Part shown: positions 3,962 to 64,000 of the stretch, one piece after another
Layout: every line of letters begins with the position of its first letter
Numbering within the stretch: the stretch's first letter is position 1
Sequence record: PZ445440.1
Source of the DNA: a phage
Length of the DNA stretch: 64,000 nucleotides
Reading direction: 5' to 3' (one strand)
Made by a program: the position numbers and the translations under genes
Notes under the pieces: generated by a model
Told to the model about the DNA's origin: nothing
Database searches by the model: none
The model's input: the letters and a program-made list of their open reading frames with translations, nothing else

Positions 3962-4453
3962 ATGTTTGTAGATGACGTAACTCGTGCCTTCGAATCAGGT
4001 GATTTCGCTCGCCCTAACCTGTTCGAAGTAGAAATCTCTTATCTTGGGCAAAACTTTAGCTTCCAGTGTCGTGCTACGGCTCTTCCTGCTGCGATCGTTG
4101 AAAAGGTTCCTGTTTCTTATATGAACCGTAAAATTAACGTGGCTGGTGATCGTACATTCGATGATTGGACTATTACAGTAATGAACGATGATGCTCATAG
4201 CATTCGTCAGAAATTTGTTGATTGGCAAGGTATTGCAGCAGGACAAGGTAATGAAATTACCGGTGGTAAACCTGCTGAATATAAAAAGACTGCTATCGTT
4301 CGTCAATTTGCTCGTGATGCTAAAACGGTCACTAAAGAAGTTGAAATTGTCGGCTTGTGGCCTACTAACGTCGGTGAAGTATCTCTTGATTGGGATTCGA
4401 ATAACGAGATTGAAACGTTCGAAGTAACTCTTGCTCTTGATTGGTGGGAATAA
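3962..4453 (+). CDS. 19: Tail tube protein gp19
   Basis: 163 aa as in T4; late promoter TATAAATA at 3882-3889. Confidence 0.95.
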   Translation: MFVDDVTRAFESGDFARPNLFEVEISYLGQNFSFQCRATALPAAIVEKVPVSYMNRKINVAGDRTFDDWTITVMNDDAHSIRQKFVDWQGIAAGQGNEITGGKPAEYKKTAIVRQFARDAKTVTKEVEIVGLWPTNVGEVSLDWDSNNEIETFEVTLALDWWE

Positions 4454-49883: not shown

Positions 49884-50801
49884 TCAGAATTCATTAATTA
49901 CACTTGTTAATTTAGAAAGACCCGATTTTACAAAGTATGAATAAATCTTGCCTTTAGGTTGTGGTTTATACGAGTTATAATACTCTATAATGGTTGAAGC
50001 AATATTATCAGGGATATAATCAAAATCAATGAGAACCAAATTTTCTTGATACCGTTTATATTCTTCTGCACTTAATAATACTTCAGCTTGAGAACGGTCA
50101 TTGGCAATTGCTTCAATAATCGTTGTTTTCATGCTCGGAGTTCGTTCACCATCAACTCTGGTAAACCAGAAGTCGCCACGAACTCGAACAGATGCAACAC
50201 CATCTTTACGGTCGCCTTTAAGAATTTTAGTCATGCAATCAATTTCGGCAGAACCATTCTTAATTTTAACCCATTTTTTCTGTGGTGGCGACCACTGTTT
50301 AACGTTAGGGTATTTGTGTAATTGTGTAAAGTCGCCATCTGATGCAACAATACACACCTTATGACCAGCTAATGACAAATATTTAGTTAATACACCGATA
50401 TGGTCATCCGCTTCATATTTGTCAATATCCATTACAACGTATGGCATGTATTTCTTAATCTCATCAACAACTTGATGGAGTGCAGTAAAATATCCTTCCC
50501 AATCCCACTTTGAAGCTTCACGATCGGTTTTACGATTTTTCTTGTAATAGTAAGCAAAGTCACGTCGCCAATAACCTGAAGTAGCATTATCCATACACAA
50601 TACAAATTTTGTATAGCCTTGCCTACGGAACATCACTACGTTTTTACGAATTGAATTCAAGATTACATGGCGAACCATCGGAACAGTAATTTTATCGCCG
50701 TCTTCAAAGTTGTTTAATGCGGCTGCCAATGCAATGTTACTAAAGTCGGCAAGCGCAATACCTTCTTTGTAATCTTCATCCAACATCATTTCTAAATCCA
50801 T
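49884..50801 (-). CDS. rnh: RNase H (5'-3' exonuclease / flap endonuclease)
   Basis: 305 aa, same as T4 Rnh; strong similarity. Confidence 0.95.
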   Translation of the reverse strand: MDLEMMLDEDYKEGIALADFSNIALAAALNNFEDGDKITVPMVRHVILNSIRKNVVMFRRQGYTKFVLCMDNATSGYWRRDFAYYYKKNRKTDREASKWDWEGYFTALHQVVDEIKKYMPYVVMDIDKYEADDHIGVLTKYLSLAGHKVCIVASDGDFTQLHKYPNVKQWSPPQKKWVKIKNGSAEIDCMTKILKGDRKDGVASVRVRGDFWFTRVDGERTPSMKTTIIEAIANDRSQAEVLLSAEEYKRYQENLVLIDFDYIPDNIASTIIEYYNSYKPQPKGKIYSYFVKSGLSKLTSVINEF

Positions 50802-50834
50802 ATGAACCTCTTGTTCAGTTAGTCAACTTGGACT

Positions 50835-50864
50835 ATAGTAACATACTAGTTCGAAAGCGTAAAT
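50835..50864 (-). promoter_or_regulatory. Early promoter for rnh
   Basis: reverse complement ATTTACGCTTTCGAACTAGTATGTTACTAT. Confidence 0.5.
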
Positions 50865-50879
50865 AGTCTTTTACTCATT

Positions 50880-50887
50880 TATAAATA
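50880..50887 (+). promoter_or_regulatory. Late promoter TATAAATA for gene 34
   Basis: exact consensus about 35 nt upstream of start. Confidence 0.7.
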
Positions 50888-50921
50888 GTAAAATAGAACA
50901 CATAATGATAAGAGGACTACC

Positions 50922-53900
50922 ATGGTTGACATCAAACGTAAGTTCAGGGCCGAAGACGGTCTTGACGCAGGCGGTGATAAGATAGTTAACGTTGCGCTTG
51001 CTGACCGCACAGTTGGCACCGATGGCGTGAACGTTGACTTTTTGGTGCAAGAAAACACCGTACAGAATTATGACGATACGCGCGCGTATACAAAAGATTT
51101 TATTGTTCTTTATGATAATCGTTTTTATCAAGCTTTAAGTGATATTCCAGCTCCGGCAGGCCCTTTCTCTTTGGCTAAATGGAAGGCAACTCGTACAGAT
51201 GCAGAATGGATTACAGTTCAAGGCGGAGATTTCCAATTATCAGTAGGTAACTCTATTGCGGTTGATACTTCAGCTGGCACTGATATTAATTTCACTTTGC
51301 CTCAAAATCCTTTAGATGGCGATACAGTTATTTTGTCTGATATTGGTGGTAGAGTAGGCTATGTAAAAGTTCAAATTACTGCAGAGGCTCAAAGTATTGT
51401 AAACTTTAGAGGACAACAGGTTCGTTCAGTTTTAATGACGCACCCAAAATCTAAAATGGTCTTCATTTTTAGCAACCGCCTATGGCAAATGTATGTTTCT
51501 GATTACGAACGTAATGCAGTCACAGTAACTCCTGCTACGCCGTATCAGGCGCAACCTAATGATTTTATCATTCGACGTTTTACATCAGCCGCTCCTATTA
51601 ATATTACATTGCCTCGTAATGCTAATAACGGCGATATTATTAATTTAGTGGATTTAGACAAATTAAACCCATTATATCACACAATTGTCAAAACTTACGA
51701 TGAAACAACTTCTATACGAGAAGCTGGTGTTCATGTAGCAGAAGGACGTAATACTGCGGAAGCATTCTTTGTTTATGATTCTGCCAATAGTTTATGGCGT
51801 GTTTGGGAAGGTGACCAGAAATCTCGTTTACGTATAGTTCGTAATGATACTGATTTACGCCCTAATGAAGAAGTTCTTGTTTTTGGAACTAATAATGATA
51901 CAATCTCGACGGTAAATCTTACTTTGCCTACAGATATTTTGTCTGGCGATACTGTTAAAATATCGTTGAATTATATGCGTAAAGGGCAAACTGTAAAAAT
52001 TAAAGCTGCTGAAGGCGATACAATTGCTAGCAGTATTTCTTTATTACAGTTCCCAAAACGTTCGGAGTATCCACCTGATGCACAATGGGTTTCTGTTAGT
52101 GAGCTGGAATTTAATGGTGATACTTCGTATGTACCTGTACTTGAGTTAGCTTATATAGAAGATTATTCATCTGAAACAAAATATTGGGTAGTTCAACAAA
52201 ACACCGTAACCGTTGAACGAGTCGATGCATCGAGCAATACAACTCGAGCTCGTTTAGGTGTTATTGCTCTTGCTTCTCAAGCGCAAGCAAATGTTGATTT
52301 AGAAAATGCTCCTGGTAAAGAACTGGCTATTACTCCGGAAACATTAGCAAATCGTACAGCAACTGAAACTCGTCGTGGTATTGCTCGTATTGCAACAACT
52401 GCACAAGTTAACCAGAATACCGATTTTGCATTCCAAGACGACTTGATTATTTCTCCTAAGAAATTGAACGAACGTACAGCAACTGAAACCCGTAGAGGTG
52501 TTGCTGAAGTTGCAACTCAGGCTGAAACTAATGCTGGAACAGATGATACCACTATTATTACTCCTAAGAAATTGGATGCCCGTCAAGGTTCTGAAGTTTT
52601 ATCTGGTATTGTAAAATACACATCTACGACTGGTACTACAGCTGCTACTATTCGTGGTAATGCTGGGACTAATGTTTATAACAAAGCCGTAGATAATTTA
52701 ACTATTTCTCCAAAGGCTCTTGACCAGTATAAAGCTACCCCTACTCAGCAGGGTGCAGTAATTCTTGCTATTGAAAGTGAAGTTATCGCTGGCGAATCAC
52801 AAGCAGGTTGGGCTAATGCTGTAGTGACCCCTGAAACTCTGCATAAGAAAACTTCTACTGATGGACGTATTGGTTTAATTGAAATTGCTACGCAAGTAGA
52901 AACTAACACTGGAACTGATTATACTAGAGCAGTAACGCCTAAGACGTTAAATGATAGGAAAGCTACGGAAGGATTATCTGGCATAGCTGAAATTGCTACG
53001 CAAGTTGAATTTGATACTGGAACTGATGATACTCGTATCTCGTCTCCACTGAAAATTAAAACTCATTTTGATTCTTCTGACCGTACCAGTGTTAATTCTG
53101 ATTCCGGACTTATTGAAGAAGGAACCTTGTGGAACCATTATACTCTTGATATTTCTAAAGCAAATGAAACACAACGTGGTACACTTCGAGTAGCGACCCA
53201 GGCAGAATCTAATGCAGGAACTTTAGATGATGTTCTTATTACTCCTAAAAAGCTTTTAGGGACTAAGTCCACTGAAACATCTGAAGGCGTAATTAAGGTT
53301 GCTACTCAGGCTGAAACTGTAACAGGAACTTCTGCTAATACTGCTGTATCACCTAAGAATTTAAAATGGATTGTTCAATCAGAACCGTCATGGACTGCTA
53401 CTACGGCAATTCGTGGATTCGTTAAAACTTCATCTGGTTCTATTACATTTGTTGGTAATGATACAGTTGGTTCAACACAATCTTTAGAATCATATGAGAA
53501 AAATAGCTATGCGGTGTCACCATATGAATTAAACCGTGTACTTGCTAACTACTTACCGTTGAAAGCTAAAGCAGCTGATAGTAATTTGTTAGATGGTCTA
53601 GATTCTCTTCAGTTCATCCGTAGAGACATCGACCAGACGGTTAATGGTTCTTTAAGTCTTACTAAACAGACCAACCTGAGTGCTCCTTTAGTATCTACAA
53701 GCACTGCTTCTTTTGGTTCCGAAGCATCTGTTACTCGTAGATTAACTCTTAATGACTCTAGCGGTTCCGAAATAGTTTTCACTAAAGGAACCCAATCTCT
53801 TAGTAATAAAGAGAATTTCGTTGTTAGAGCATGGGGTAATAGCGCTACAGATGGTGCCCGTGATACAGTATTTGAAGCGGGTGACGAAACCGGATACCAT

Positions 53901-54755
53901 TTCTATTCTCAGCGCGCTGCTGATAATAGAGTATCATTTAATATTAATGGAACACTTTATTCAACAGGTATTGTTTCTACAAATGGATTAAATGTTACAG
54001 GTGTTTCTACCTTTACAGGGCCTATTAGTGCTACAGGCGAAATTGTTTCTAGTTCTCCTATTGCATTCAGAGCTATTAACGGTAACTATGGTGTTATGCT
54101 TTATAATGCTGGTAACAGTTCTTATATTGCATTAACTAACTCAGGTGACCAGACCGGGACGTTTAATAACTTACGCCCGATCACGATTAACAACGCCACA
54201 GGCTTAGTTCGTCTTGACAATGGTGTTCAAATCACAAGTGGTGCAACAATAACTACCGGTGGGTTAACTGTAAATAACAGAATTATTTCTAACGGCGTTA
54301 AAACTGCCACTGTTTATACCGATAAACCAACAGCTTCTACTGTAGGTTTTTGGTCTATTGACATTAACGATTCTGCTGTATATAGCCAATTCCCTGGATA
54401 CTGGACGCGTGATAACAAAGGTAACCGTGACCAAGAAATTAAATATCCTGGTACTTTGACTCAATTTGGTAATAGCTTAGATTCGCTTTATCAGGATTGG
54501 ATTTGTTATCCTACAGGTGCAAATGGCGGTAGTATTCGTTATACTCGTACCTGGCAGAAAAATAAAGATGCTTGGACTTCATTTGCAATGGTATTTGATA
54601 GTGGCAACCCACCTTCACCTAGCGATGTCGGTGCTATCCCATCTGATAATGCTGTTATTGGAAACCTTACTGTTCGAGACTTCTTACAATTAGGAAATGT
54701 GAGAATTGTTCCAGACCCGGTTAACAAAACAGTTAAATTTATATGGGTTGAATAA
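50922..54755 (+). CDS. 34: Long tail fiber proximal subunit gp34
   Basis: 1277 aa; repeat-rich; position after rnh. Confidence 0.95.
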   Translation: MVDIKRKFRAEDGLDAGGDKIVNVALADRTVGTDGVNVDFLVQENTVQNYDDTRAYTKDFIVLYDNRFYQALSDIPAPAGPFSLAKWKATRTDAEWITVQGGDFQLSVGNSIAVDTSAGTDINFTLPQNPLDGDTVILSDIGGRVGYVKVQITAEAQSIVNFRGQQVRSVLMTHPKSKMVFIFSNRLWQMYVSDYERNAVTVTPATPYQAQPNDFIIRRFTSAAPINITLPRNANNGDIINLVDLDKLNPLYHTIVKTYDETTSIREAGVHVAEGRNTAEAFFVYDSANSLWRVWEGDQKSRLRIVRNDTDLRPNEEVLVFGTNNDTISTVNLTLPTDILSGDTVKISLNYMRKGQTVKIKAAEGDTIASSISLLQFPKRSEYPPDAQWVSVSELEFNGDTSYVPVLELAYIEDYSSETKYWVVQQNTVTVERVDASSNTTRARLGVIALASQAQANVDLENAPGKELAITPETLANRTATETRRGIARIATTAQVNQNTDFAFQDDLIISPKKLNERTATETRRGVAEVATQAETNAGTDDTTIITPKKLDARQGSEVLSGIVKYTSTTGTTAATIRGNAGTNVYNKAVDNLTISPKALDQYKATPTQQGAVILAIESEVIAGESQAGWANAVVTPETLHKKTSTDGRIGLIEIATQVETNTGTDYTRAVTPKTLNDRKATEGLSGIAEIATQVEFDTGTDDTRISSPLKIKTHFDSSDRTSVNSDSGLIEEGTLWNHYTLDISKANETQRGTLRVATQAESNAGTLDDVLITPKKLLGTKSTETSEGVIKVATQAETVTGTSANTAVSPKNLKWIVQSEPSWTATTAIRGFVKTSSGSITFVGNDTVGSTQSLESYEKNSYAVSPYELNRVLANYLPLKAKAADSNLLDGLDSLQFIRRDIDQTVNGSLSLTKQTNLSAPLVSTSTASFGSEASVTRRLTLNDSSGSEIVFTKGTQSLSNKENFVVRAWGNSATDGARDTVFEAGDETGYHFYSQRAADNRVSFNINGTLYSTGIVSTNGLNVTGVSTFTGPISATGEIVSSSPIAFRAINGNYGVMLYNAGNSSYIALTNSGDQTGTFNNLRPITINNATGLVRLDNGVQITSGATITTGGLTVNNRIISNGVKTATVYTDKPTASTVGFWSIDINDSAVYSQFPGYWTRDNKGNRDQEIKYPGTLTQFGNSLDSLYQDWICYPTGANGGSIRYTRTWQKNKDAWTSFAMVFDSGNPPSPSDVGAIPSDNAVIGNLTVRDFLQLGNVRIVPDPVNKTVKFIWVE

Positions 54756-54763
54756 GAGGTTAT

Positions 54764-55888
54764 ATGGAAAAATTTATGGCAAGGTTTGGACAGGGATACG
54801 TCCAAACGCCGTTTTTATCGGAAAGCAATTCAGTTAGATTTAAGCTAAGTATAGCGGGTTCATGCCCGCTTTCAACAACTAATCCGTATATTTTGTTCCA
54901 AAACGAGCCTTTAGGGTTGCAGTCTTTTGGTATTGGACTAAATGTTAGGGTGATAAATCCGGAAAATGGAACTATAGTTGATAGTAAATTATACAATTTT
55001 GCGCCTACAAATAATGCAACTTCAGCTGCATTTATTTCGTTTGTTAATACATACGCAGATAATTTCATTTTCGCATTTATTTCCAATAACAAATTTAATT
55101 TGCCACCAGAAATAATTGAATGGTTTAAAGCTGCTGGGAGTTCAGTTATACCGTCAATTGAAGTTGCTAGTCTTGTTGATATTTCATATTCAGCGTTTTA
55201 TGTTTCAGGTAAAAATACTATTGCATTAGAACACATAAAATACAGTAATAAGAAAACAATTTCTGATTACGCAACTCCATTAGATATTGTATATGACTCT
55301 ATTGCTGATATAGGTGCTACCGGCTATCCTAGACGTACATATGAAGCTCTAGAAACGTTTTTATCTCCTGTTGGAGGAACTAACAATGAAATAAAAAGGA
55401 TGCCTACGTCATCCCTTGTTACTCCTATCGCAAACTATGGATTAAAGCCTACAGATTTTCTTTATTTGAAATTTCAATTAACGGCTGATGAAGAATTATT
55501 AGAGGAAGGAACCACAAGACTTTCAATTCGTTTCTTTAAGTCTCCATCTAGCTCTCCTATATCATCTAAAGATATAAACTTTGATGGAATTGCCGGGGAG
55601 TGGAAGCTATATGAAGAATACGTTGAAATACCAGCTGAAGCTGATGGCTTTACAGTATATTGTTACCGTACGGCCTCAGTCGGTCAAGGTGGACTAAGAA
55701 ATGTTATTTTCACTGAAGTATCATGTAACGGAAGTATAGCAAAACCCGCTGAGTTTGGTATAAACGGTATTCGTGTTAATTACATTGATGAATCATTAAC
55801 CGGTAATGATATAATGGACTTGCCTACTCAGTTATCTAACGACACAGGTAAGGTATTTGGGCAGGAATTTAAAGAGTACACAGAATAA
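54764..55888 (+). CDS. 35: Long tail fiber hinge protein gp35
   Basis: 374 aa, syntenic. Confidence 0.9.
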   Translation: MEKFMARFGQGYVQTPFLSESNSVRFKLSIAGSCPLSTTNPYILFQNEPLGLQSFGIGLNVRVINPENGTIVDSKLYNFAPTNNATSAAFISFVNTYADNFIFAFISNNKFNLPPEIIEWFKAAGSSVIPSIEVASLVDISYSAFYVSGKNTIALEHIKYSNKKTISDYATPLDIVYDSIADIGATGYPRRTYEALETFLSPVGGTNNEIKRMPTSSLVTPIANYGLKPTDFLYLKFQLTADEELLEEGTTRLSIRFFKSPSSSPISSKDINFDGIAGEWKLYEEYVEIPAEADGFTVYCYRTASVGQGGLRNVIFTEVSCNGSIAKPAEFGINGIRVNYIDESLTGNDIMDLPTQLSNDTGKVFGQEFKEYTE

Positions 55889-55906
55889 AGGAGACTTCGG
55901 TCTCCT
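55889..55906 (+). terminator. Hairpin AGGAGACUUCGGUCUCCU after gene 35
   Basis: UUCG-loop stem followed by TTTT; late promoter at 55914-55921 follows. Confidence 0.6.
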
Positions 55907-55947
55907 TTTCGCGTATAAATACTTTAATATTAATAAGGAGACACGAA

Positions 55948-56604
55948 ATGGCCGATTTAAAAGCCGGAAGTACAGTTGGTGGTTCCGTCATATGGCATCA
56001 AGGCAATTTTCCTTTAATGCCAGCTGGCGACGACATCCTATATAAAACATTTAAATTATACACCGAATATAACAAGCCAAAAGCGGCTGATAACGATTTC
56101 GTATCTAAAGCAAATGGTGGGACATATCTCAAAAAGGTAATCTTTAACGAAGGTATTTCAGTCAAAACAGCAGATGACCAAACGAATGGTATTTTTTCTG
56201 GTGGTGGTGACGCCGCGACATTCGACCAAACAAACATGGATATTGTTTCGTGGTATGGTATTGGGTTTAAATCATCTCAAGGTACAGGTGAAAGAACTGT
56301 TGTAATTGATACTCGCACCGGTAATATAGGTTCTAAAGGCGTTATTGAAGCATCTCAATTCAGAGCCACAACGTTAGCACCTTTAAATAATTACGACCTT
56401 ACTCGCAAAGATTATGTTGATAGTCAAATAAATACAGTTAATGCTAATGCAAACTCTAGGGTATCACGCTCTGGAGATATGATGACCGGCGCTCTAACCG
56501 CCCCAAACTTTTTCTCACAGAATCCTGCATCTCAACCCTCACATGTTCCACGATTTGACCAAATTGTTATTAAGGATTCTGTTCAAGATTTCGGCTATTA
56601 TTAA
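55948..56604 (+). CDS. 36: Long tail fiber distal connector gp36
   Basis: 218 aa, syntenic. Confidence 0.9.
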   Translation: MADLKAGSTVGGSVIWHQGNFPLMPAGDDILYKTFKLYTEYNKPKAADNDFVSKANGGTYLKKVIFNEGISVKTADDQTNGIFSGGGDAATFDQTNMDIVSWYGIGFKSSQGTGERTVVIDTRTGNIGSKGVIEASQFRATTLAPLNNYDLTRKDYVDSQINTVNANANSRVSRSGDMMTGALTAPNFFSQNPASQPSHVPRFDQIVIKDSVQDFGYY

Positions 56605-56612
56605 GAGGACTT

Positions 56613-59600
56613 ATGGCTACTTTAAAACAAATACAATTTAAAAGAAGCAAAACTGCAGGAGCACGTCCTGCCGCTTCAGTATTAGCCGAAGGTGAATTGG
56701 CTATAAACTTAAAAGACCGTGTACTTTTTACTAAAGATGACCAAGGAAATATTATTGATCTGGGTTTTGCTAAAGGCGGTAGTATTGACGGGAATGTTAT
56801 TCATACAGGTAATTATAACCAAACTGGCGATTATACTTTAAATGGCACCTTCACTCAGACAGGTAATTTTAATTTAACTGGTATTGCTCGAGTAACTCGC
56901 GATATTATTGCCGCTGGGCAGATTATGACTGAAGGCGGAGAACTTATTACAAAAAGTTCAGGTACGGCACATGTTCGTTTTTTCGATGGCAATAGCCGCG
57001 AACGTGGAATCATTTATGCCCCGGCTAATGATGGATTAACTACACAAGTACTTAATATCAGGGTTCAAGACTACGCCGCTGGTAGCGAAAGCACTTATGC
57101 ATTTTCAGGCAATGGACAATTTACTTCACCTGAAGTATCGGCATGGAAATCTATGTCAACTCCTCAGATTTTGACTGACAAAGTCATTACAGACGGGAAG
57201 AAGGCCGGTGATTACGACATCTATTCATTAGCAAATAATAATTCTAACACAGATAAAAATAATTTACGTGTCGTACGTACCGACCCGGCGGCCGCAATGC
57301 TCCATGAAATTTGTGAAAACAACGGCATCAGTTGGTATTCTGGTTCAACCCCTACTGATTATATGTTATCTTTTGCTTATTCCGGCGGTTTTCAAGCAGG
57401 CCATTCGATTGCAGTAGGTATGGAATCAGGGCCTATGACATATTCAACCTTAGGTAAAGGTTCTATTGTTCTTGGGGATAATGATACTGGATTTAAATGG
57501 CATCAAGACGGATATTATTTCAGTGTTAATAATGGAACAAAAACGTTTTTATTTGGTCCTAGCGAAACAACTAGCCTAAGAAAATTTGTAGCCGGATATT
57601 CTACTAATGGAACCGATTTAACTACTCCTCCAACTGAAAACTATGCTCTTGCTACTGTTGTGACATATCACGATAATAACGCGTTTGGAGATGGTCAGAC
57701 TCTTTTGGGATATTATCAAGGCGGTAATTATCATCACTATTTCCGTGGTAAGGGTACCACAAACATTAATACTCACGGCGGTTTGTTGGTTACTCCTGGT
57801 AATATTGATGTTATCGGCGGTTCTGTTAATATAGATGGTAGAAATAATTCTTCTACACTAATGTTTAGAGGCAACACAACAGGATACAGCTCGGTTGATA
57901 ATATGGATATTAAAGTTTGGGGTAATACGTTTGTTGATCCAAGCGGAGGTATCCGTAAAAACATTATGGAAATTTCTGATGCAACTAGCTGGATGAGCTA
58001 TATTCAAAGACTTACTACTGGCGAAGTAGAAATGAACGTTAATGGTTCATTTGAATCATCTGGTGTTACTGCTGGAGATAGAGGAGTTCACACAACAGGC
58101 GAAATTTCATCTGGTGCAGTGAATGCTCTTCGTATTTGGAACGCAGATTATGGAGTCATTTTTAGACGTTCAGAAGGAAGTCTTCATATTATTCCAACTG
58201 CTTATGGCGAAGGCAAAGATGGCGATATCGGTCCACTTCGTCCGTTTAGTATGTCTTTAGATACAGGTAAGGTCGTTATTCCTGACCTAGATTTGAGTCA
58301 TACAACTTTTGCTGAAAATGGTTTTATTAAATTCGGTGGGCATGGAGCAGGCGCTGGTGGTTATGACATTCAATATGCTCAAGCGGCTCCTATTTTCCAG
58401 GAAATTGATGATGATGCTGTAAGCAAATATTATCCTATTGTTAAACAGAAGTTTTTAAACGGTAAATCCGTTTGGTCTTTAGGTACCGAAATTGAATCAG
58501 GTACATTCGTTATTCATCATCTGAAAGAAGATGGTTCACAAGGCCATACATCAAGATTTAATATGGATGGTACTGTTAATTTCCCTGATAATGTTCTGGT
58601 CGGCGGTGATATTAACATGAAAGGCGTGATGACTTTTGACGCCGGACGTTTAGGATCACGAGATTATTTTAAATTTAACCATTGGGGTGATAGTAATAAT
58701 GCTCGTGATAACATCATCCAGTTAGAAGATAGTCAAGGCGCTCATTTTTCCACTGAACGTACTTTAGCGACAGGTGCAATTAAAACTCGTTTCTTTGGCG
58801 AAACATTTACTGATGGTACATTATACCTAAATCAGATGAATAATAGCTCTGAACGATTCCATATCAATAATTGGGGAAATTCAGAAGTTGGTCGCGCGGC
58901 GGTGGTGGAAGTCGGTGATTCCAAAGGTTATCACTTCTATACAGAACGCAGGACAGATAACAGTTTGACGTTTGATGTTGCTGGCACTTTTACCGTGCAT
59001 GGATCTAGCGGGATCACTATCAAAAACTCTGCTGGCGCTCGCCGCATCTGGTTTAAAGATGATAGCGAATCGGAAAAGGCTGTTATCTGGGCTACAGATG
59101 AGGGTATTTTACATATACGAAATAATTATGGGGGTTCATTTAGTCATCACTTCCAGGGTGCAATGATTCTAGCGGGAGAGCGTGTTCCATATAATAGTGA
59201 ATACGCTCTTATCCGTGGTAATATTTCCGGTGGTGCATGGGTAGACTGGCGAGATCGTCCGGCTGGATTGTTGGTAGACTGTCAGGACTCACGAAATCAA
59301 GCATATAACATTTGGAAAGCTACTCATTGGGGCGAACAGCACATTGCGGCGATGGGTGTTCATGCTGGTGGTGGTAATCCTCATGTTGTATTGCATGTGG
59401 GTGGGAGTGATTATGCATTTGGATTTAACGGTGATTTTACTGCTGGCGCTGCTGTATATTGTAACGACGTTTATATTCGTTCTGACCGTCGTCTGAAAAT
59501 TAATGTTGAAGACTACGAAGAGAATGCGGTAGATAAGGTAAATAAACTCAAAGTTAAAACCTATGATAAAGTTAAATCTCTTTCTGACCGCGAAGTTATC

Positions 59601-59834
59601 GGCCATGAGATTGGTATTATCGCACAGGATTTGCAAGAAGTATTACCGGAAGCTGTTAGCACTTCTAGTGTCGGATCTCAGGATAACCCAGAAGAAATTT
59701 TAACAATTTCTAACTCTGCTGTGAACGCGCTTTTAATTAAGGCCATTCAGGAAATGAGCGAAGAAATTAAAGAATTGAAAACGCCTCTCTTTACTAAAAT
59801 TGCTCGCAAAATTAGTAAATATTTTAAATTCTAA
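56613..59834 (+). CDS. 37: Long tail fiber distal subunit gp37, T2-type with C-terminal intramolecular chaperone-like domain
   Basis: 1073 aa; N-terminus matches T4 gp37; C-terminus has S-D-R-R-L-K autocleavage-like motif instead of T4 His-box tip. Confidence 0.9.
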   Translation: MATLKQIQFKRSKTAGARPAASVLAEGELAINLKDRVLFTKDDQGNIIDLGFAKGGSIDGNVIHTGNYNQTGDYTLNGTFTQTGNFNLTGIARVTRDIIAAGQIMTEGGELITKSSGTAHVRFFDGNSRERGIIYAPANDGLTTQVLNIRVQDYAAGSESTYAFSGNGQFTSPEVSAWKSMSTPQILTDKVITDGKKAGDYDIYSLANNNSNTDKNNLRVVRTDPAAAMLHEICENNGISWYSGSTPTDYMLSFAYSGGFQAGHSIAVGMESGPMTYSTLGKGSIVLGDNDTGFKWHQDGYYFSVNNGTKTFLFGPSETTSLRKFVAGYSTNGTDLTTPPTENYALATVVTYHDNNAFGDGQTLLGYYQGGNYHHYFRGKGTTNINTHGGLLVTPGNIDVIGGSVNIDGRNNSSTLMFRGNTTGYSSVDNMDIKVWGNTFVDPSGGIRKNIMEISDATSWMSYIQRLTTGEVEMNVNGSFESSGVTAGDRGVHTTGEISSGAVNALRIWNADYGVIFRRSEGSLHIIPTAYGEGKDGDIGPLRPFSMSLDTGKVVIPDLDLSHTTFAENGFIKFGGHGAGAGGYDIQYAQAAPIFQEIDDDAVSKYYPIVKQKFLNGKSVWSLGTEIESGTFVIHHLKEDGSQGHTSRFNMDGTVNFPDNVLVGGDINMKGVMTFDAGRLGSRDYFKFNHWGDSNNARDNIIQLEDSQGAHFSTERTLATGAIKTRFFGETFTDGTLYLNQMNNSSERFHINNWGNSEVGRAAVVEVGDSKGYHFYTERRTDNSLTFDVAGTFTVHGSSGITIKNSAGARRIWFKDDSESEKAVIWATDEGILHIRNNYGGSFSHHFQGAMILAGERVPYNSEYALIRGNISGGAWVDWRDRPAGLLVDCQDSRNQAYNIWKATHWGEQHIAAMGVHAGGGNPHVVLHVGGSDYAFGFNGDFTAGAAVYCNDVYIRSDRRLKINVEDYEENAVDKVNKLKVKTYDKVKSLSDREVIGHEIGIIAQDLQEVLPEAVSTSSVGSQDNPEEILTISNSAVNALLIKAIQEMSEEIKELKTPLFTKIARKISKYFKF

Positions 59835-59840
59835 CAACAA

Positions 59841-59855
59841 GGGGGAAATGCCCCC
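59841..59855 (+). terminator. Hairpin GGGGGAAAUGCCCCC after gene 37
   Basis: 5-bp G/C stem followed by TTTGG. Confidence 0.5.
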
Positions 59856-59870
59856 TTTGGAGTATAAATT

Positions 59871-60650
59871 ATGGCAGTAGTTGGAGTTCCTGGCTGGATT
59901 GGAAGTTCAGCCGTAAATGAAACGGGTCAGCGCTGGATGAGTCAAGCAGCTGGTCAATTAAGATTGGGTGTTCCTTGCTGGATGAGTCAATTTGCAGGTC
60001 GCTCAAGAGAAATAATTCACACACTTGGAGCAGACCATAACTTCAATGGTCAATGGTTCCGAGATAGATGTTTTGAGGCAGGTAGTGCACCTATAGTGTT
60101 TAATATCACCGGAAATTTAGTATCATATAGTAAAGATGTTCCATTATTCTTTATGTATGGCGATACACCAAATGAATATGTTACTTTGAATATTCATGGT
60201 GGAGTTCATATGTGGGGACGAGGTGGTAACGGCACTGTAAACGGAAACCCAGGCACAAATGGCGGCGATGTAATCCAAAATGATATCGGCGGAAGACTTC
60301 GTATTTGGAACTATGGCGTTATTGCATCAGGTGGCGGTGGTGGTGGTGCAGTGTCATTACAGAATAGCTGGGCGCCAAATGCTACAGCAGGTGGCGGTGG
60401 CGGCAGACCATTTGGCCTCGGTGGTGGTGGCGTTAATTGGCCTGGCGGTAATGCTAGTTATGACGCCCCGGGCGGTGCCGGTTACACTTCCCAATTCGGC
60501 GGTGGTAATGGTGGCGATGCTGGGGGTCGGGGCGGAGATGGATGGGGTAATCACTTATCTAGATCTGGCGGTGGTGCTCCTGGCAGAGCAGTATTCGGAA
60601 GTTCACCGTCATGGGGTGCTACAGGCACAATCTACGGCTCCTGGATTTAA
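59871..60650 (+). CDS. 38: Receptor-recognising adhesin gp38 (T2-type, glycine-rich motifs)
   Basis: 259 aa; [12 protein letters not shown]-terminus; multiple GGGGG tracts separating variable segments. Confidence 0.85.
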
Positions 60651-60668
60651 ACGATATTACCTCTCAAT

Positions 60669-60676
60669 TATAAATA
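60669..60676 (+). promoter_or_regulatory. Late promoter TATAAATA for holin gene t
   Basis: exact consensus 20 nt upstream of ATG at 60696. Confidence 0.65.
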
Positions 60677-60695
60677 TTGATAAATGGGAGGTAAT

Positions 60696-61355
60696 ATGGC
60701 AGCACCAAAAGTATCATTTTCGCCTAGTGATATTTTATTTGGGTTGCTAGACCGCATTTTCAAAGATAACGCCTCTGGAAATATTCTTATTTCAAGAGTT
60801 GCTGTTGTAGTTCTTTTGTTCCTAATGGCACTAATATGGTACAAAGGGAATATTTTTATGGATTATTACGTGAGGTCGAAATATGATACTTACACAGAAG
60901 TAATTCAAAAAGAAAGAAATACACGATTTGAATCTGCGGCTTTAGAACAACTACAAATAGTCCACGTCACATCAAGGGCGGATTTTAGTTCGGTGTATTC
61001 TTTCAGACCTAAAAATCTAAATTATTTCGTCGACCTTATTGCGTATGAAGGTAAGTTACCTAGCACAGTAACTGAAAAATCTATGGGAGGATTTCCTGTT
61101 GATAAAACGACAGCAGAATATTCGGTCCATTTAAGTGGACTTCACTTTACTTCTAAAACAGATTTTGCTTTCTTACCTACAAAATCAAAAACTCCGGAAC
61201 TGGTGTATATGTATAGTTGTCCTTACTTCAATTTGGATAACATATATGCTGGAACTGTTTCTATGTATTGGTATAAGGGGTCGGATGTGTTAAATGAAGA
61301 ACGCTTGGCTGCAATATGCAACCAAGCAGCAAGGATATTAGGGCGGGCTAAATAA
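60696..61355 (+). CDS. t: Holin T
   Basis: 219 aa from MAAPKVSFSPSDILFG; strong similarity to recalled T4 T; one N-terminal TM segment. Confidence 0.9.
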   Translation: MAAPKVSFSPSDILFGLLDRIFKDNASGNILISRVAVVVLLFLMALIWYKGNIFMDYYVRSKYDTYTEVIQKERNTRFESAALEQLQIVHVTSRADFSSVYSFRPKNLNYFVDLIAYEGKLPSTVTEKSMGGFPVDKTTAEYSVHLSGLHFTSKTDFAFLPTKSKTPELVYMYSCPYFNLDNIYAGTVSMYWYKGSDVLNEERLAAICNQAARILGRAK

Positions 61356-61628
61356 TTAGTTGTTAGAATACATCGTCAAATGGCGATAAATATTTTCAAA
61401 ACCTTCATTGAATTCACTAATCAGTGTTTTCTTTTCTTCGGCAGTTAAATTTGTAATTAGTTTTCTGAACGAATTCTGATTTAGCTGCCGACCATCTTTT
61501 TTAATTCCAATCTCATTCAAGAATCCGATGAAATTTGCTCGGTCTTCAACAATATCTTCCCTCGAGAATTTAATCAAAATAGAAGCAACCGTAATAATTT
61601 CACGTACAATTTCAATATCTTTATTCAT
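61356..61628 (-). CDS. asiA: Anti-sigma70 protein AsiA
   Basis: 90 aa; near-identical to recalled T4 AsiA. Confidence 0.9.
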   Translation of the reverse strand: MNKDIEIVREIITVASILIKFSREDIVEDRANFIGFLNEIGIKKDGRQLNQNSFRKLITNLTAEEKKTLISEFNEGFENIYRHLTMYSNN

Positions 61629-61674
61629 AACGTTTTATTCATTCCATTTGGTTGATATGAGTATAGTACCATTA

Positions 61675-61890
61675 TCAGTGTTGATTGTAAACAGCTTTTT
61701 CTACACTTTTAACGTAATCAGTGTAGTCTTCCTGTTCATACGAGTGTAAGGCCAAGAACGTGGCTAATAGTTCATTATAGACTAAAGCCTCACGCCCACG
61801 TTCTGCCTCTACTACGTTCTGTAGATTATGGCTCATATCATTCCTTATAACTATCAATGTAGTCCTGTATGTCAAAGAATGACATTTCAT
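61675..61890 (-). CDS. Hypothetical protein, 71 aa
   Basis: ORF in asiA-motA interval. Confidence 0.4.
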   Translation of the reverse strand: MKCHSLTYRTTLIVIRNDMSHNLQNVVEAERGREALVYNELLATFLALHSYEQEDYTDYVKSVEKAVYNQH

Positions 61891-62125
61891 ATTCTAGGAC
61901 ATTAAGAGCCCGTTCTTCAGTATAGTCAGAACCAAATACGATAGTGATTTCACCAGGCTTCATGTGATTGAAATCGACACTAAAAGGAATACGAGAACAT
62001 ACTTCGTCTGCCATATCTACAACAACACTACGATACACTTCTCGGTTAACCTGATAAAGCTCTGCAAGTTCTTCACATCGAATAACAAGTTCAGTGGCAG
62101 GATTTTCTTTGATTTTAGTAAGCAT
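61838..62125 (-). CDS. Hypothetical acidic protein, 95 aa (possible Arn-like; unverified)
   Basis: D/E-rich ORF in the position where T4 carries arn. Confidence 0.4.
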   Translation of the reverse strand: MLTKIKENPATELVIRCEELAELYQVNREVYRSVVVDMADEVCSRIPFSVDFNHMKPGEITIVFGSDYTEERALNVLEYEMSFFDIQDYIDSYKE

Positions 62126-62199
62126 AGTCTTTACCCTTATGTTTTTGTTTGCGTTTAGATTGAAGTTCTGATTTCTTCTTATCCTTATGGACAGAAGCC

Positions 62200-62427
62200 T
62201 TATTGAAATCGTGTTTTGCTACAAGATTGTTCATAATGATTTATAACCTCATTTAAACATTTATCGGTAAAAGAAAACTTTTTAGCCACAGAACATTCGA
62301 TGATGTGTTCTTTCAAATCTTTAGAGTCAGTATAACCCATCTCAGTAATAAAGCGGCGAATTAAAGCTTTATTCTTATCATTAACAGAATTAAAATAATC
62401 TGCTTTAGAATCAATTATTCTCATCAT
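62200..62427 (-). CDS. Hypothetical protein, 75 aa
   Basis: ORF. Confidence 0.4.
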   Translation of the reverse strand: MMRIIDSKADYFNSVNDKNKALIRRFITEMGYTDSKDLKEHIIECSVAKKFSFTDKCLNEVINHYEQSCSKTRFQ

Positions 62428-62692
62428 CTAATTTCCTTAATTGATATTGCAACGAGCTAATAATTTCTTCGTTCATTTTAATATACATGTCACGCAAGAA
62501 AGGTTTTAACCCATCACGAATAATTGCTAATGTATCACCTTTACATAAATTGACCAAATAAGGGTGCTCTAAAGCGTCCCAACCAGGCTGATTAGCATAC
62601 ATACCATAGTTTTCTTCCATCATATGATTAAGACGTTTGATATCTTGGATACGTGATTCAATAGCATCTTTCTGGAGTTGTTTAATATTCAT
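62411..62692 (-). CDS. Hypothetical protein, 93 aa
   Basis: ORF. Confidence 0.45.
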   Translation of the reverse strand: MNIKQLQKDAIESRIQDIKRLNHMMEENYGMYANQPGWDALEHPYLVNLCKGDTLAIIRDGLKPFLRDMYIKMNEEIISSLQYQLRKLDDENN

Positions 62693-63153
62693 TAATAAAG
62701 GTCCTCTGAATAAAGTTCTTTCTCACTTCCACCACGTTCAATACGTACCTGTCCAGCATACGTTGCAATAATCATTGCTTCTTCACGCGTCCAGTAATTA
62801 GAGTATTGGTCAATAAAACCTTGGTCGTCACCACAAACTTGTTGCGAGACTAATTGAGGACCAACTATATCAAGTACTTCAGCCATATCTTTAGAGTAAT
62901 GACGAACTCCAGGAATAACCAGAGTTCCGCCGCTCTTCAATTTAAATCTATTAGCTGCACATACTATAACACGTTGAACTTTTTGGTCATTGTTCCAATA
63001 GCACGTTTGCCAACAGATTTCAGGAACTTCATTCATTATATCATCAGCAGAATAATTATAACCGTAGGACTGGAATTTTTCTGCTAGACTTTCAGGAGTC
63101 TCACGAGACAAGGCCAAATCTAATAGCTCTAAACGTTCTTTAAATGATTTCAT
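62692..63153 (-). CDS. Hypothetical protein, 153 aa
   Basis: ORF, coupled start/stop with neighbours. Confidence 0.5.
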
Positions 63154-63479
63154 TTAAACCATTCCTTAATACGTTGCCAAATAGATTTTTGTGCTTGTTT
63201 ATTTACACCAATCGAACGAATAACCGGTTGTGACTGCTGATATTCTTTATAATCTTCTTTATAGATTTCGTAAGCTGCATCAACAAATGAACTGATCGCT
63301 GCCATATAGTTTTTACGAAGGCCAAATGGCGCATCATTATTTTCACGAATAACCGTATATTGGCCTGCTTTAATCTTTACAATTGTCCCTAAATAAGCCC
63401 CGTGGTACCAAATATCCCATCCTTCCTGAGTAGGTTCTGCACATTTACGAAGTTCGTTAATAATATTCAGCTTATTCAT
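63150..63479 (-). CDS. Hypothetical protein, 109 aa
   Basis: ORF immediately downstream of motA. Confidence 0.45.
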
Positions 63480-63489
63480 TATGTATTCC

Positions 63490-64000
63490 TCACAGTACGT
63501 TAGTTACAAGGGTAATGATTTCTTTGGACACATTAGGGAAGTCAATGTAAGTATATTTACCACCGATCTTAATCTTAACATCATTTTCAAGAGAAGTAAA
63601 CAGCTTTGATTCAGTTTCTGACATGTTGTATGCAAAGATTCTAAGAGCGCCATCTCGTCGAATTTCAATTTGGCGAATACCTAGAACTCGTTTTGCAAAT
63701 CGAACTTCCAAGTTACTACGGTTTTCACCAATTTCTTTAACTTCGACTTTATCTTTAATATTTTCAAAAACAAAGTTTGCCAGTTCATGCATTTCAGGAG
63801 TAACTCCACGGGCTTTTCTGGTGTTACGTTTCTGAAGAAGTTCTGGAGCATTTTCTTGGGCAAAGAGGTCTGCAGCTTTTTGGATAATATCCATTGCTTC
63901 GCCTGTTGCTACAAGTCCATCACCGGATTTTTCGACTAAACCTTTCTTAATCAATACACCAATGTTAGAGTTAACAACCGATGCATTGTATTCTGCTTCC
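63490..64000 (-). CDS. motA: MotA middle-transcription activator, partial (N-terminus beyond window end)
   Basis: reading frame continues to the window edge; VVNSNIGVLIKKGLVEKSGDGL matches recalled T4 MotA; the track Met is a TTG inside the gene. Confidence 0.85.
   Translation of the reverse strand, partial: EAEYNASVVNSNIGVLIKKGLVEKSGDGLVATGEAMDIIQKAADLFAQENAPELLQKRNTRKARGVTPEMHELANFVFENIKDKVEVKEIGENRSNLEVRFAKRVLGIRQIEIRRDGALRIFAYNMSETESKLFTSLENDVKIKIGGKYTYIDFPNVSKEIITLVTNVL

Follow-up and report, generated by a model that had tools for sequence, protein, structure and literature searches.

The stretch of phage DNA described here (sequence record PZ445440.1, 64,000 nucleotides, called the window below and used for all positions) carries the two genes that encode the receptor-binding end of a long tail fibre. 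The pieces analysed, positions 56613 to 60650, run exactly from the start of gp37 to the stop of gp38. The gp37 open reading frame (ORF; 56613–59834) encodes the long tail fibre distal subunit as a precursor of 1073 residues, and the gp38 ORF (59871–60650) encodes the fibre-tip adhesin, of 259 residues; both lie on the + strand, as do all features below unless stated otherwise. They are preceded in the ORF list by reading frames of 1277, 374 and 218 residues and followed by one of holin size, a series that Pfam and PHROGs assign to gp34, gp35, gp36, gp37, gp38 and holin t (for gp37, phrog_1699 at 1297 bits over residues 1–1068). Gene 38 thus sits between gene 37 and holin t, and the same order is found in T2, T6, FL33, fPS-2 and the BASEL relatives.

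A megablast search with the 4038 nucleotides of the locus matches 657 records and returns a full-length match, at 4037 of 4038 positions, to MZ501056, the genome of Escherichia phage ChristianSchoenbein. It is classified as a Mosigvirus and listed in the BASEL collection as Bas46 (PMC8594841). Its record labels the two genes ‘long tail fiber distal subunit Gp37’ (bas46_0079) and ‘adhesin tip for distal long tail fiber Gp38’ (bas46_0080). The gene identities, domain boundaries and allele relationships reported below are direct observations, and we are highly confident that the locus is the standard gp38-adhesin receptor-binding end of a T-even long tail fibre, as published in coliphage Bas46.

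The gp38 adhesin

Two Pfam families cover gp38 almost from end to end. Residues 47–259 match PF05268 over the whole profile (1–218 of 218; E 2.3e-83, 279.8 bits against a cut-off of 25), and residues 1–42 match PF21721 (E 1.4e-20, 73.4 bits, also against a cut-off of 25). The protein also matches phrog_2056 at E 2e-110. Among solved structures, matches include the receptor-binding domain of PP01 (9V85, E 1.6e-73) and S16 gp38 (6F45_D, E 5.5e-48), while a comparison with T4 gp38 finds no similarity (E 0.99). The E values for PF05268 and 9V85 put chance similarity out of the question.

The first 42 residues (59871–59996) form the N-terminal attachment domain and include W9, W22 and W37, whose columns are nearly invariant in an alignment of 11 adhesins. 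In S16, three tryptophans of gp38 plug into the end of gp37 (PMC6851490). The attachment domain of the window is 98% identical to those of T6, Bas35 and fPS-2, 76% identical to those of Bas38 and Shf125875, and 67–69% identical to those of T2 and Bas45 (67% for T2).

The specificity domain, residues 116–259 (60216–60647), consists of glycine-rich motifs with hypervariable segments between them. Glycine accounts for 65 of the 259 residues of gp38 and for 51 of the 144 in this domain, and there are 14 runs of at least two glycines. Invariant glycine columns in the 11-sequence alignment include G116–G121, G154–G159, G174–G178, G182/G185, G212–G215 and G238; variable stretches include residues 122–130, 160–173, 188–200, 203–209 and 223–232. 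This is the anatomy that the initial annotation had proposed, a glycine-motif adhesin with hypervariable segments, and the two Pfam families, the 9V85 match and the alignment all agree with it. In S16 gp38, the glycine-rich motifs build a polyglycine-II lattice whose distal variable loops are the proposed binding site (PMC6851490). With 65% identity to 9V85 and 49% to 6F45_D across the aligned residues, gp38 of the window would be expected to adopt the same polyglycine-II sandwich fold.

The DNA of the specificity domain has a GC content of 0.56, compared to 0.38 for the window, because of its GGN codons. Two further ORFs overlap it: one of 156 residues in another frame of the same strand (60280–60750) and one of 65 residues on the opposite strand (60357–60554). 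Both were judged to be composition artefacts of this GGN-rich stretch of GC 0.56 and were set aside.

Receptor specificity

The receptor question has already been answered, since for Bas46 itself the BASEL S5 Table names OmpF as primary receptor (PMC8594841). OmpF is also given for Bas38 and Bas47, and is required by FL33, FL34 and FL31 (PMC12032242) and used by fPS-2 (PMC7917993). Receptors of the other phages were likewise taken from the BASEL S5 Table and S8 legend, PMC12032242, PMC7917993 and PMC12892980; the OmpA class is represented by Bas45, and the K3, Ox2 and M1 adhesins lie outside the comparison.

Alignment of the gp38 variable segments with adhesins of known receptor, the check suggested with the initial annotation, gives a clear answer. 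Across residues 116–259, the window is 99% identical to Bas38 and fPS-2 (both OmpF), 99% identical to Shf125875 (the closest relative, according to BASEL, of the OmpF phage Bas47) and 97% identical to FL33 (OmpF). Identity falls to 56% for T2 (FadL/OmpF), 53% for PP01 (OmpC), 49% for T6 and Bas35 (Tsx), 48% for S16 (OmpC) and 47% for Bas45 (OmpA), which sets the OmpF group at 97–99% apart from the others at 47–56%. Over the full length of gp38, identity is 99.2% to fPS-2, 95.0% to Bas47 and about 91% to RB69 and RB51. Judged by these identities, the specificity domain belongs to the RB69/OmpF allele group. Residues 116–259 of gp38 reveal to which receptor class a T-even phage belongs: members of the OmpF group share 97–99% there and other classes about 50%.

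It is conceivable, though on balance unlikely, that the adhesin recognizes more than OmpF and that the lipopolysaccharide (LPS) core, FhuA or TolC serves as a second component, in which case ‘OmpF adhesin’ would be an incomplete description. Several close relatives have needs of this kind. For example, RB69 and RB51 require OmpF, FhuA and a full LPS core according to PMC3157838, and fPS-2 requires both OmpF and the LPS core on Yersinia (PMC7917993). FL33, FL34 and FL31 drop by at least one log on a tolC mutant. For Bas46 itself, the BASEL column that follows the primary receptor reads ‘LPS (deep core)’, and an intact LPS inner core was required by all Mosigvirus isolates tested in that study. 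However, BASEL ascribes the need for the LPS core to the short tail fibres rather than to gp38, and LPS and tolC defects change porin levels indirectly, a point made for LPS by Trojet et al. A second component would in any case refine the reading of gp38 as an OmpF-directed adhesin and would not contradict it.

The gp37 shaft and distal tip

Gp37 resembles its T4 counterpart at the start and departs from it toward the tip. The first 60 residues are about 90% identical to T4 gp37, and the overall BLASTP alignment, at 35% identity, covers only residues 1–636 and ends at T4 residue 743. The C-terminal 437 residues have no BLASTP alignment to T4 gp37, including its residues 744–1026. HxH motifs number 0 in gp37 and 8 in T4 gp37, where 6 of them take the form GxHxH. 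A T4-type His-box tip was rejected on these two grounds, the missing motifs and the unalignable T4 tip, just as the initial annotation had maintained.

Within the shaft, residues 449–546 (57957–58250) form a domain resembling the C-terminal trimerisation domain of gp34 (PF21446, E 1.2e-8), and residues 414–558 match the T4 gp34 structures 4UXE and 5NXF at E values of about 1e-12. Repeated segments of the form WGN...(D/E)xxGxHFY (residues 683–710 and 751–780) align with each other and with residues 478–517 of T4 gp37. Together, the gp34-related domain and the repeats point to internal duplication along the gp37 shaft.

The variable distal tip of mature gp37 spans residues 807–956 (59031–59480) and ends in a conserved NDVYIR strand. 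In a comparison of protein segments, residues 807–948 are 96% identical to SQ17 and 73% identical to FL33, and only 17–24% identical to T2, T6, fPS-2, Shf125875, Bas38, Bas35 and Bas45. At the nucleotide level, region 59031–59480 has no homology to Shf125875 or Bas38. The NDVYIR strand is predicted to carry gp38, by analogy with docking in S16 (PMC7917993, PMC6851490).

The C-terminal chaperone of gp37 and its predicted release

Directly after the NDVYIR strand comes a C-terminal intramolecular chaperone of 117 residues (957–1073; 59481–59831), predicted to be released after trimerisation. Residues 957–1015 match the Peptidase_S74 family (PF13884) over positions 1–57 of 58 (E 1.2e-14, 54.7 bits against a cut-off of 22). 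This match begins exactly at S957, and the domain runs on to the gp37 stop codon. Its first six residues, S-D-R-R-L-K (957–962; 59481–59498), mark the predicted autocleavage site R956^S957, with S957 and K962 as the Ser-Lys pair. In Peptidase_S74 chaperones this pair is catalytic. The chaperone also matches the S16 gp37 fragment 6F45_A (E 3.7e-11), where SDRRLK stands opposite SDRRIK, and more weakly the phage tail fibre 8JOV and the self-cleaving domain of MYRF (7DC3).

Conservation of the site can be followed across ten adhesin-type gp37 proteins (T2, T6, Bas35, Bas38, Bas45, SQ17, Shf125875, fPS-2, FL33 and the window). The motif VYIRSDxRxK is present in 10 of 10, at 99–117 residues from the end, and is absent from T4 gp37; the serine and the lysine five residues on are kept in all ten. 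S16 gp37 sheds its last 113 residues by autocleavage, with the cut falling between the paired serines of DLNVS^SDRRIKK, and a site in the fPS phages, DVYIR^SDGRLKI, has been aligned with the S16 cleavage site (PMC7917993). Trojet et al. (PMC3157838) describe gp37 of T2 and T6 as cleaved and then capped, and credit the T2 processing to Drexler et al. 1986. Aligned with the S16 and fPS sites, gp37 of the window is predicted to be cut at R956^S957, which would free 117 residues. The self-cleaving chaperone at SDRRLK that had been proposed from the sequence is thus borne out by homology, both by the PF13884 match from S957 and by the S16 alignment.

Chaperones fall into subtypes. That of the window is 96–100% identical to those of FL33 and SQ17, 70–74% to those of T6, Bas35 and fPS-2 (72% for T6), about 40% to those of T2 and Bas45 (41% for T2) and about 33% to those of Shf125875 and Bas38. 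It carries a 16-residue basic tail, TPLFTKIARKISKYFKF, which is also found in T6 and not in T2, Bas45 or S16; gp37 of Shf125875 and Bas38 ends in a different C-terminal tail.

Alternatively, the C-terminal 117 residues could be retained on the virion, forming part of the tip, with the S74 match being an inactive, degenerate relic. Processing in Bas46 itself is predicted from its homologues, and the basic tail, which has no counterpart in T2, Bas45 or S16 and is replaced by another in Shf125875 and Bas38, could be counted in favour of this reading. We consider this very unlikely: Ser957 and Lys962 stand at the canonical spacing with the Pfam profile starting at the serine, S16 gp37 is cut at the same motif, cleavage of gp37 has been reported for T2 and T6 as well, T6 has the same basic tail, and docking of S16 gp38 requires the end that cleavage exposes.

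A model for assembly and receptor binding

Reading the locus as a gp38-adhesin fibre end, a series of steps can be proposed. Transcription, probably initiated at the late promoter that precedes gene 36, would lead to the 1073-residue gp37 precursor. Its last 117 residues, the Peptidase_S74-type intramolecular chaperone, would aid the folding of three chains into a fibre, after which the chaperone would cut itself off between R956 and S957 by means of S957 and K962. Cleavage would expose the trimeric NDVYIR end of the fibre, onto which one copy of gp38 may dock by its N-terminal domain with the three conserved tryptophans. The glycine-motif scaffold of the C-terminal domain would then present variable loops that bind the outer-membrane porin OmpF. 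Cleavage, 3:1 docking and loop-mediated binding are taken in this scheme from S16, T2 and PP01.

Some points weigh against this scheme. Homology is the basis for the cut at R956^S957, for chaperone release and for placing gp38 on the virion, and the fold given to gp38 rests on sequence identities of 49–65% to adhesins of known structure. Upstream of NDVYIR, the mature tip has no homology to that of S16, so the docking geometry has to be assumed to hang on the last strand only. The BASEL assay establishes that OmpF is needed for infection, and direct contact between gp38 and OmpF would be an extrapolation from homologues. Finally, relatives with nearly identical adhesins depend on more than OmpF, as described above: RB69 and RB51 on FhuA and the LPS core, and FL33, to a minor extent, on TolC.

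That gp38 acts solely as a non-structural assembly chaperone, as in T4, with the gp37 C-terminus binding the receptor, is the least credible alternative and can be dismissed: near-identical genes are labelled ‘long tail fiber assembly chaperone’ or ‘assembly catalyst’ in several GenBank records, and T2-like gp38 is said to aid assembly too before staying on the fibre (PMC7917993), but such labels are inherited from T4 gene naming, the protein has no similarity to T4 gp38 and matches adhesin families over its full length, it is 49% identical to the S16 gp38 seen on the gp37 tip in crystal 6F45, gp37 is without a T4-type tip, and receptor class tracks the C-terminal domain of gp38 rather than gp37. 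In the last respect, Bas38 and Shf125875 share 20–23% of the gp37 tip yet 99% of the gp38 specificity domain, and OmpF is used both by Bas38 and by Bas47, a 97%-identical relative of Shf125875.

Mosaic structure of the fibre tip

The initial annotation held that a T2-type tip module is mosaic relative to a T4-like remainder, a statement that has to be divided. Comparison in 300-nucleotide tiles confirms the mosaic. The flanks (gp34–gp36, t, asiA and beyond) are 94–100% identical to the Mosigvirus phages SQ17, Shf125875 or both, and 65–82% identical or unalignable to the Tequatrovirus phages T4, T2, fPS-2 and FL33. Between about 56500 and 60700 the pattern reverses, with FL33 and fPS-2 at 85–100% in most tiles. 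On these identities, the fibre-tip cassette is one that has been exchanged between genera. The ‘T4-like’ part did not hold, as the backbone is by the same comparison RB69-like (Mosigvirus); at about 70–80% DNA identity to T4, it is not T4-like in the narrow sense. Similarly, ‘T2-type’ describes the architecture well and the alleles poorly: the attachment domain is 98% identical to T6 against 67% for T2, the chaperone 72% against 41%, and the specificity domain is that of the RB69/OmpF group.

Exchange is also visible inside gp37. Positions 57100–57700 are Shf125875-like (98%) and only 77–87% identical to SQ17, while 58600–59800 is SQ17-like (98–99%) and absent from Shf125875. From 58608 to 59870, Shf125875 and Bas38 have no nucleotide homology to the window except for one island of 24 nucleotides.

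Four boundaries can be placed. On the left is the end of gene 36 and start of gene 37 (about 56400–56800), which is 92–100% identical in every T-even phage compared. The first internal boundary is the island just mentioned, 59462–59485, which codes for (C)NDVYIRS at the cleavage site and is almost invariant in its DNA. It is 100% identical in Shf125875 and Bas38 with both flanks unalignable, it has 0–2 changes across 10 phages with synonymous sites included, and the alignments of fPS-2, T6 and T2 start at 59462–59467. The second internal boundary lies at about 60199, which corresponds to residue 110 of gp38 and is where many megablast matches end (query position of about 3587). On the right, at 60650–60700 (where gene 38 ends and the t promoter lies), identity to FL33 and fPS-2 drops from 92–97% to 65–77%.

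The pieces between these boundaries do not all travel together. Segment identities group the gp38 attachment domains in the same way as the gp37 chaperone subtypes, and Trojet et al. (PMC3157838) describe each gp37 C-terminal subtype as paired with one gp38 N-terminal subtype. The gp38 specificity domain assorts independently of both. In the window, by identity, the attachment domain and chaperone are of the T6 subtype and the specificity domain is of the RB69/OmpF subtype. The fibre tip is in this way built of separately exchangeable pieces, which can be useful for host-range prediction and engineering.

One tentative explanation for the invariance of the island is that it acts as a recombination linker, through which the chaperone and the gp38 attachment domain may be swapped across genera independently of the tip upstream. 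The idea is plausible and falls short of an even chance in our estimation; the invariance also fits plain protein-level constraint. If true, it would add one more exchange point to the 36/37 junction, gp38 residue 110 or so and the gene 38/t boundary. A similar ‘tight cut’ has already been remarked for the fPS phages (PMC7917993).

Two further patches of mosaicism were seen. Bas38 (AugustSocin, MZ501052), a Tequatrovirus, is 97–100% identical to the window over 59870–61500, including holin t and asiA, a region in which other members of Tequatrovirus reach 65–79%. Since this high identity continues through holin t and asiA, the inter-genus exchange in Bas38 reaches beyond gene 38. A second patch, in the N-terminal part of gp34 (50800–52300), is 69–78% identical to SQ17 and 98–99% to Shf125875, with both at 94–100% from 52300.

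Expression signals

An exact motif search on the + strand between 50000 and 61500 finds the late-promoter motif TATAAATA at 50880 (before gene 34), at 55914 (55914–55921, upstream of gene 36) and at 60669 (60669–60676, before holin t and at the right end of the cassette). The fPS-2 record has a predicted late promoter at the place equivalent to 55914. As the + strand holds no such motif between 55914 and 60669, genes 36, 37 and 38 probably share one late transcript starting at the 55914 motif.

The 36-nucleotide spacer between genes 37 and 38 contains a GC-rich hairpin (59838–59859; fold energy −14.7 kcal/mol), 3′ of which lie a GGAG ribosome-binding site (59859–62) and the gp38 ATG. Hairpins occupy the same place in T4, T2, T6, fPS-2, Shf125875, Bas38 and others with differing stem sequences, for instance GGGGG/CCCCC in the window and GAGGGGC..GCCCTTC with a CTTCGG loop in T4. 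A role as an RNA stability or translational-coupling element is possible.

For holin t, the ORF list starts at ATG 60684, which falls inside the region of the ribosome-binding site; a GGAGG stands just upstream of ATG 60696, the start used by GenBank (219 residues).

Relation to the deposited Bas46 genome and neighbouring genes

A base-by-base comparison with MZ501056 (63,388 bases compared) found 0 differences in positions 1–50000 of the window and 2 in 50613–64000, which corresponds to an identity of 63,998/64,000 for the window as a whole. Both are A-to-G, non-synonymous changes in distal tail-fibre genes: S128G in gp36 (56329) and H811R in gp37 (59044). Gp36 is the distal hinge connector that joins gp37 (55948–56604; PF03903, E 1.3e-29; Gp36 in MZ501056). 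The gp38 protein is identical to the MZ501056 version. Because relatives keep the serine (SQ17, Shf125875, fPS-2, FL33 and Bas38) and the histidine (SQ17), the window carries the derived residues, G128 of gp36 and R811 of gp37. Together, gp36 and gp37 account for about 6% of the window, and the chance that two random changes would both fall there is about 0.4%. The two substitutions may point to a stock adapted in its fibres or to a sister isolate. An exact-product look-up of gp37 in its R811 form found no other record.

The locus is already published and annotated and its receptor is known experimentally; a full-text literature search found no paper on Bas46 together with gp38. The mildly new points are confined to how little the DNA of the cleavage-site island varies and to the pair of tail-fibre substitutions relative to the deposited genome. 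As a textbook alternative to the T4 fibre tip, the locus has small value as a discovery and serves as a clean worked example.

Two observations concern the proximal genes. In GenBank, bas46_0076 (the proximal subunit, gp34) bears the note ‘long tail fiber proximal subunit Gp37’, a slip that is found likewise in the Bas35 and Bas45 records. In gp35, the proximal hinge connector (54764–55888), residues 58–131 match PF15711 (E 6.5e-7, 30.2 bits against a cut-off of 27), the ILEI or interleukin-like EMT inducer domain, a family name that one would not expect in the hinge of a phage fibre.

Comparison with known systems

The closest system described in structural terms is gp37–gp38 of S16 (PDB 6F45; Dunne et al. 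2018, described in PMC6851490). Shared features include the trimeric gp37 end, the SDRRxK chaperone and a single gp38 that likewise has a three-tryptophan attachment domain and a glycine-motif specificity domain, at 49% identity. S16 differs in its target, OmpC of Salmonella, in a specificity domain that is 48% identical and in a gp37 tip that is barely similar before the last strand; its chaperone resembles the Shf125875/Bas38 subtype more than that of the window. PP01 gp38 (9V85; PMC12892980) is the best match among solved structures, with a beta-helix part that is 89% identical and the glycine lattice motifs kept. It differs in binding OmpC of E. coli O157 and in its loops, the specificity domain being only 53% identical.

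T2 and T6 share the gene order, the reported C-terminal processing of gp37 and the glycine motifs and hypervariable segments of gp38. They are the subjects of the classical work on adhesins of this type (Drexler 1986 and Riede 1987, as cited in PMC3157838). T2 differs in a gp37 of 1341 residues, a 99-residue chaperone of another subtype, FadL/OmpF as receptor and a specificity domain at 56% identity, and T6 in its Tsx receptor and a specificity domain at 49%.

Beyond the T-even phages, the chaperone belongs to Peptidase_S74 (PF13884, ‘Chaperone of endosialidase’, a domain also found in MYRF), whose members have a serine at the start and a lysine five residues on and follow trimeric fibres at the C-terminus. 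In endosialidases, the end freed by release of the chaperone is the functional tip itself, whereas in Bas46, as read here, it would be the docking site for a separate adhesin.

T4 has the same locus position and a gp37 start that is about 90% identical. It differs in that its tip has His-x-His iron sites, its gp37 is without the S74 chaperone motif and its gp38 is unrelated. Among T-even phages the gp38-adhesin design is, according to PMC6851490 and PMC3157838, the common one, from which T4 departs as an exception.

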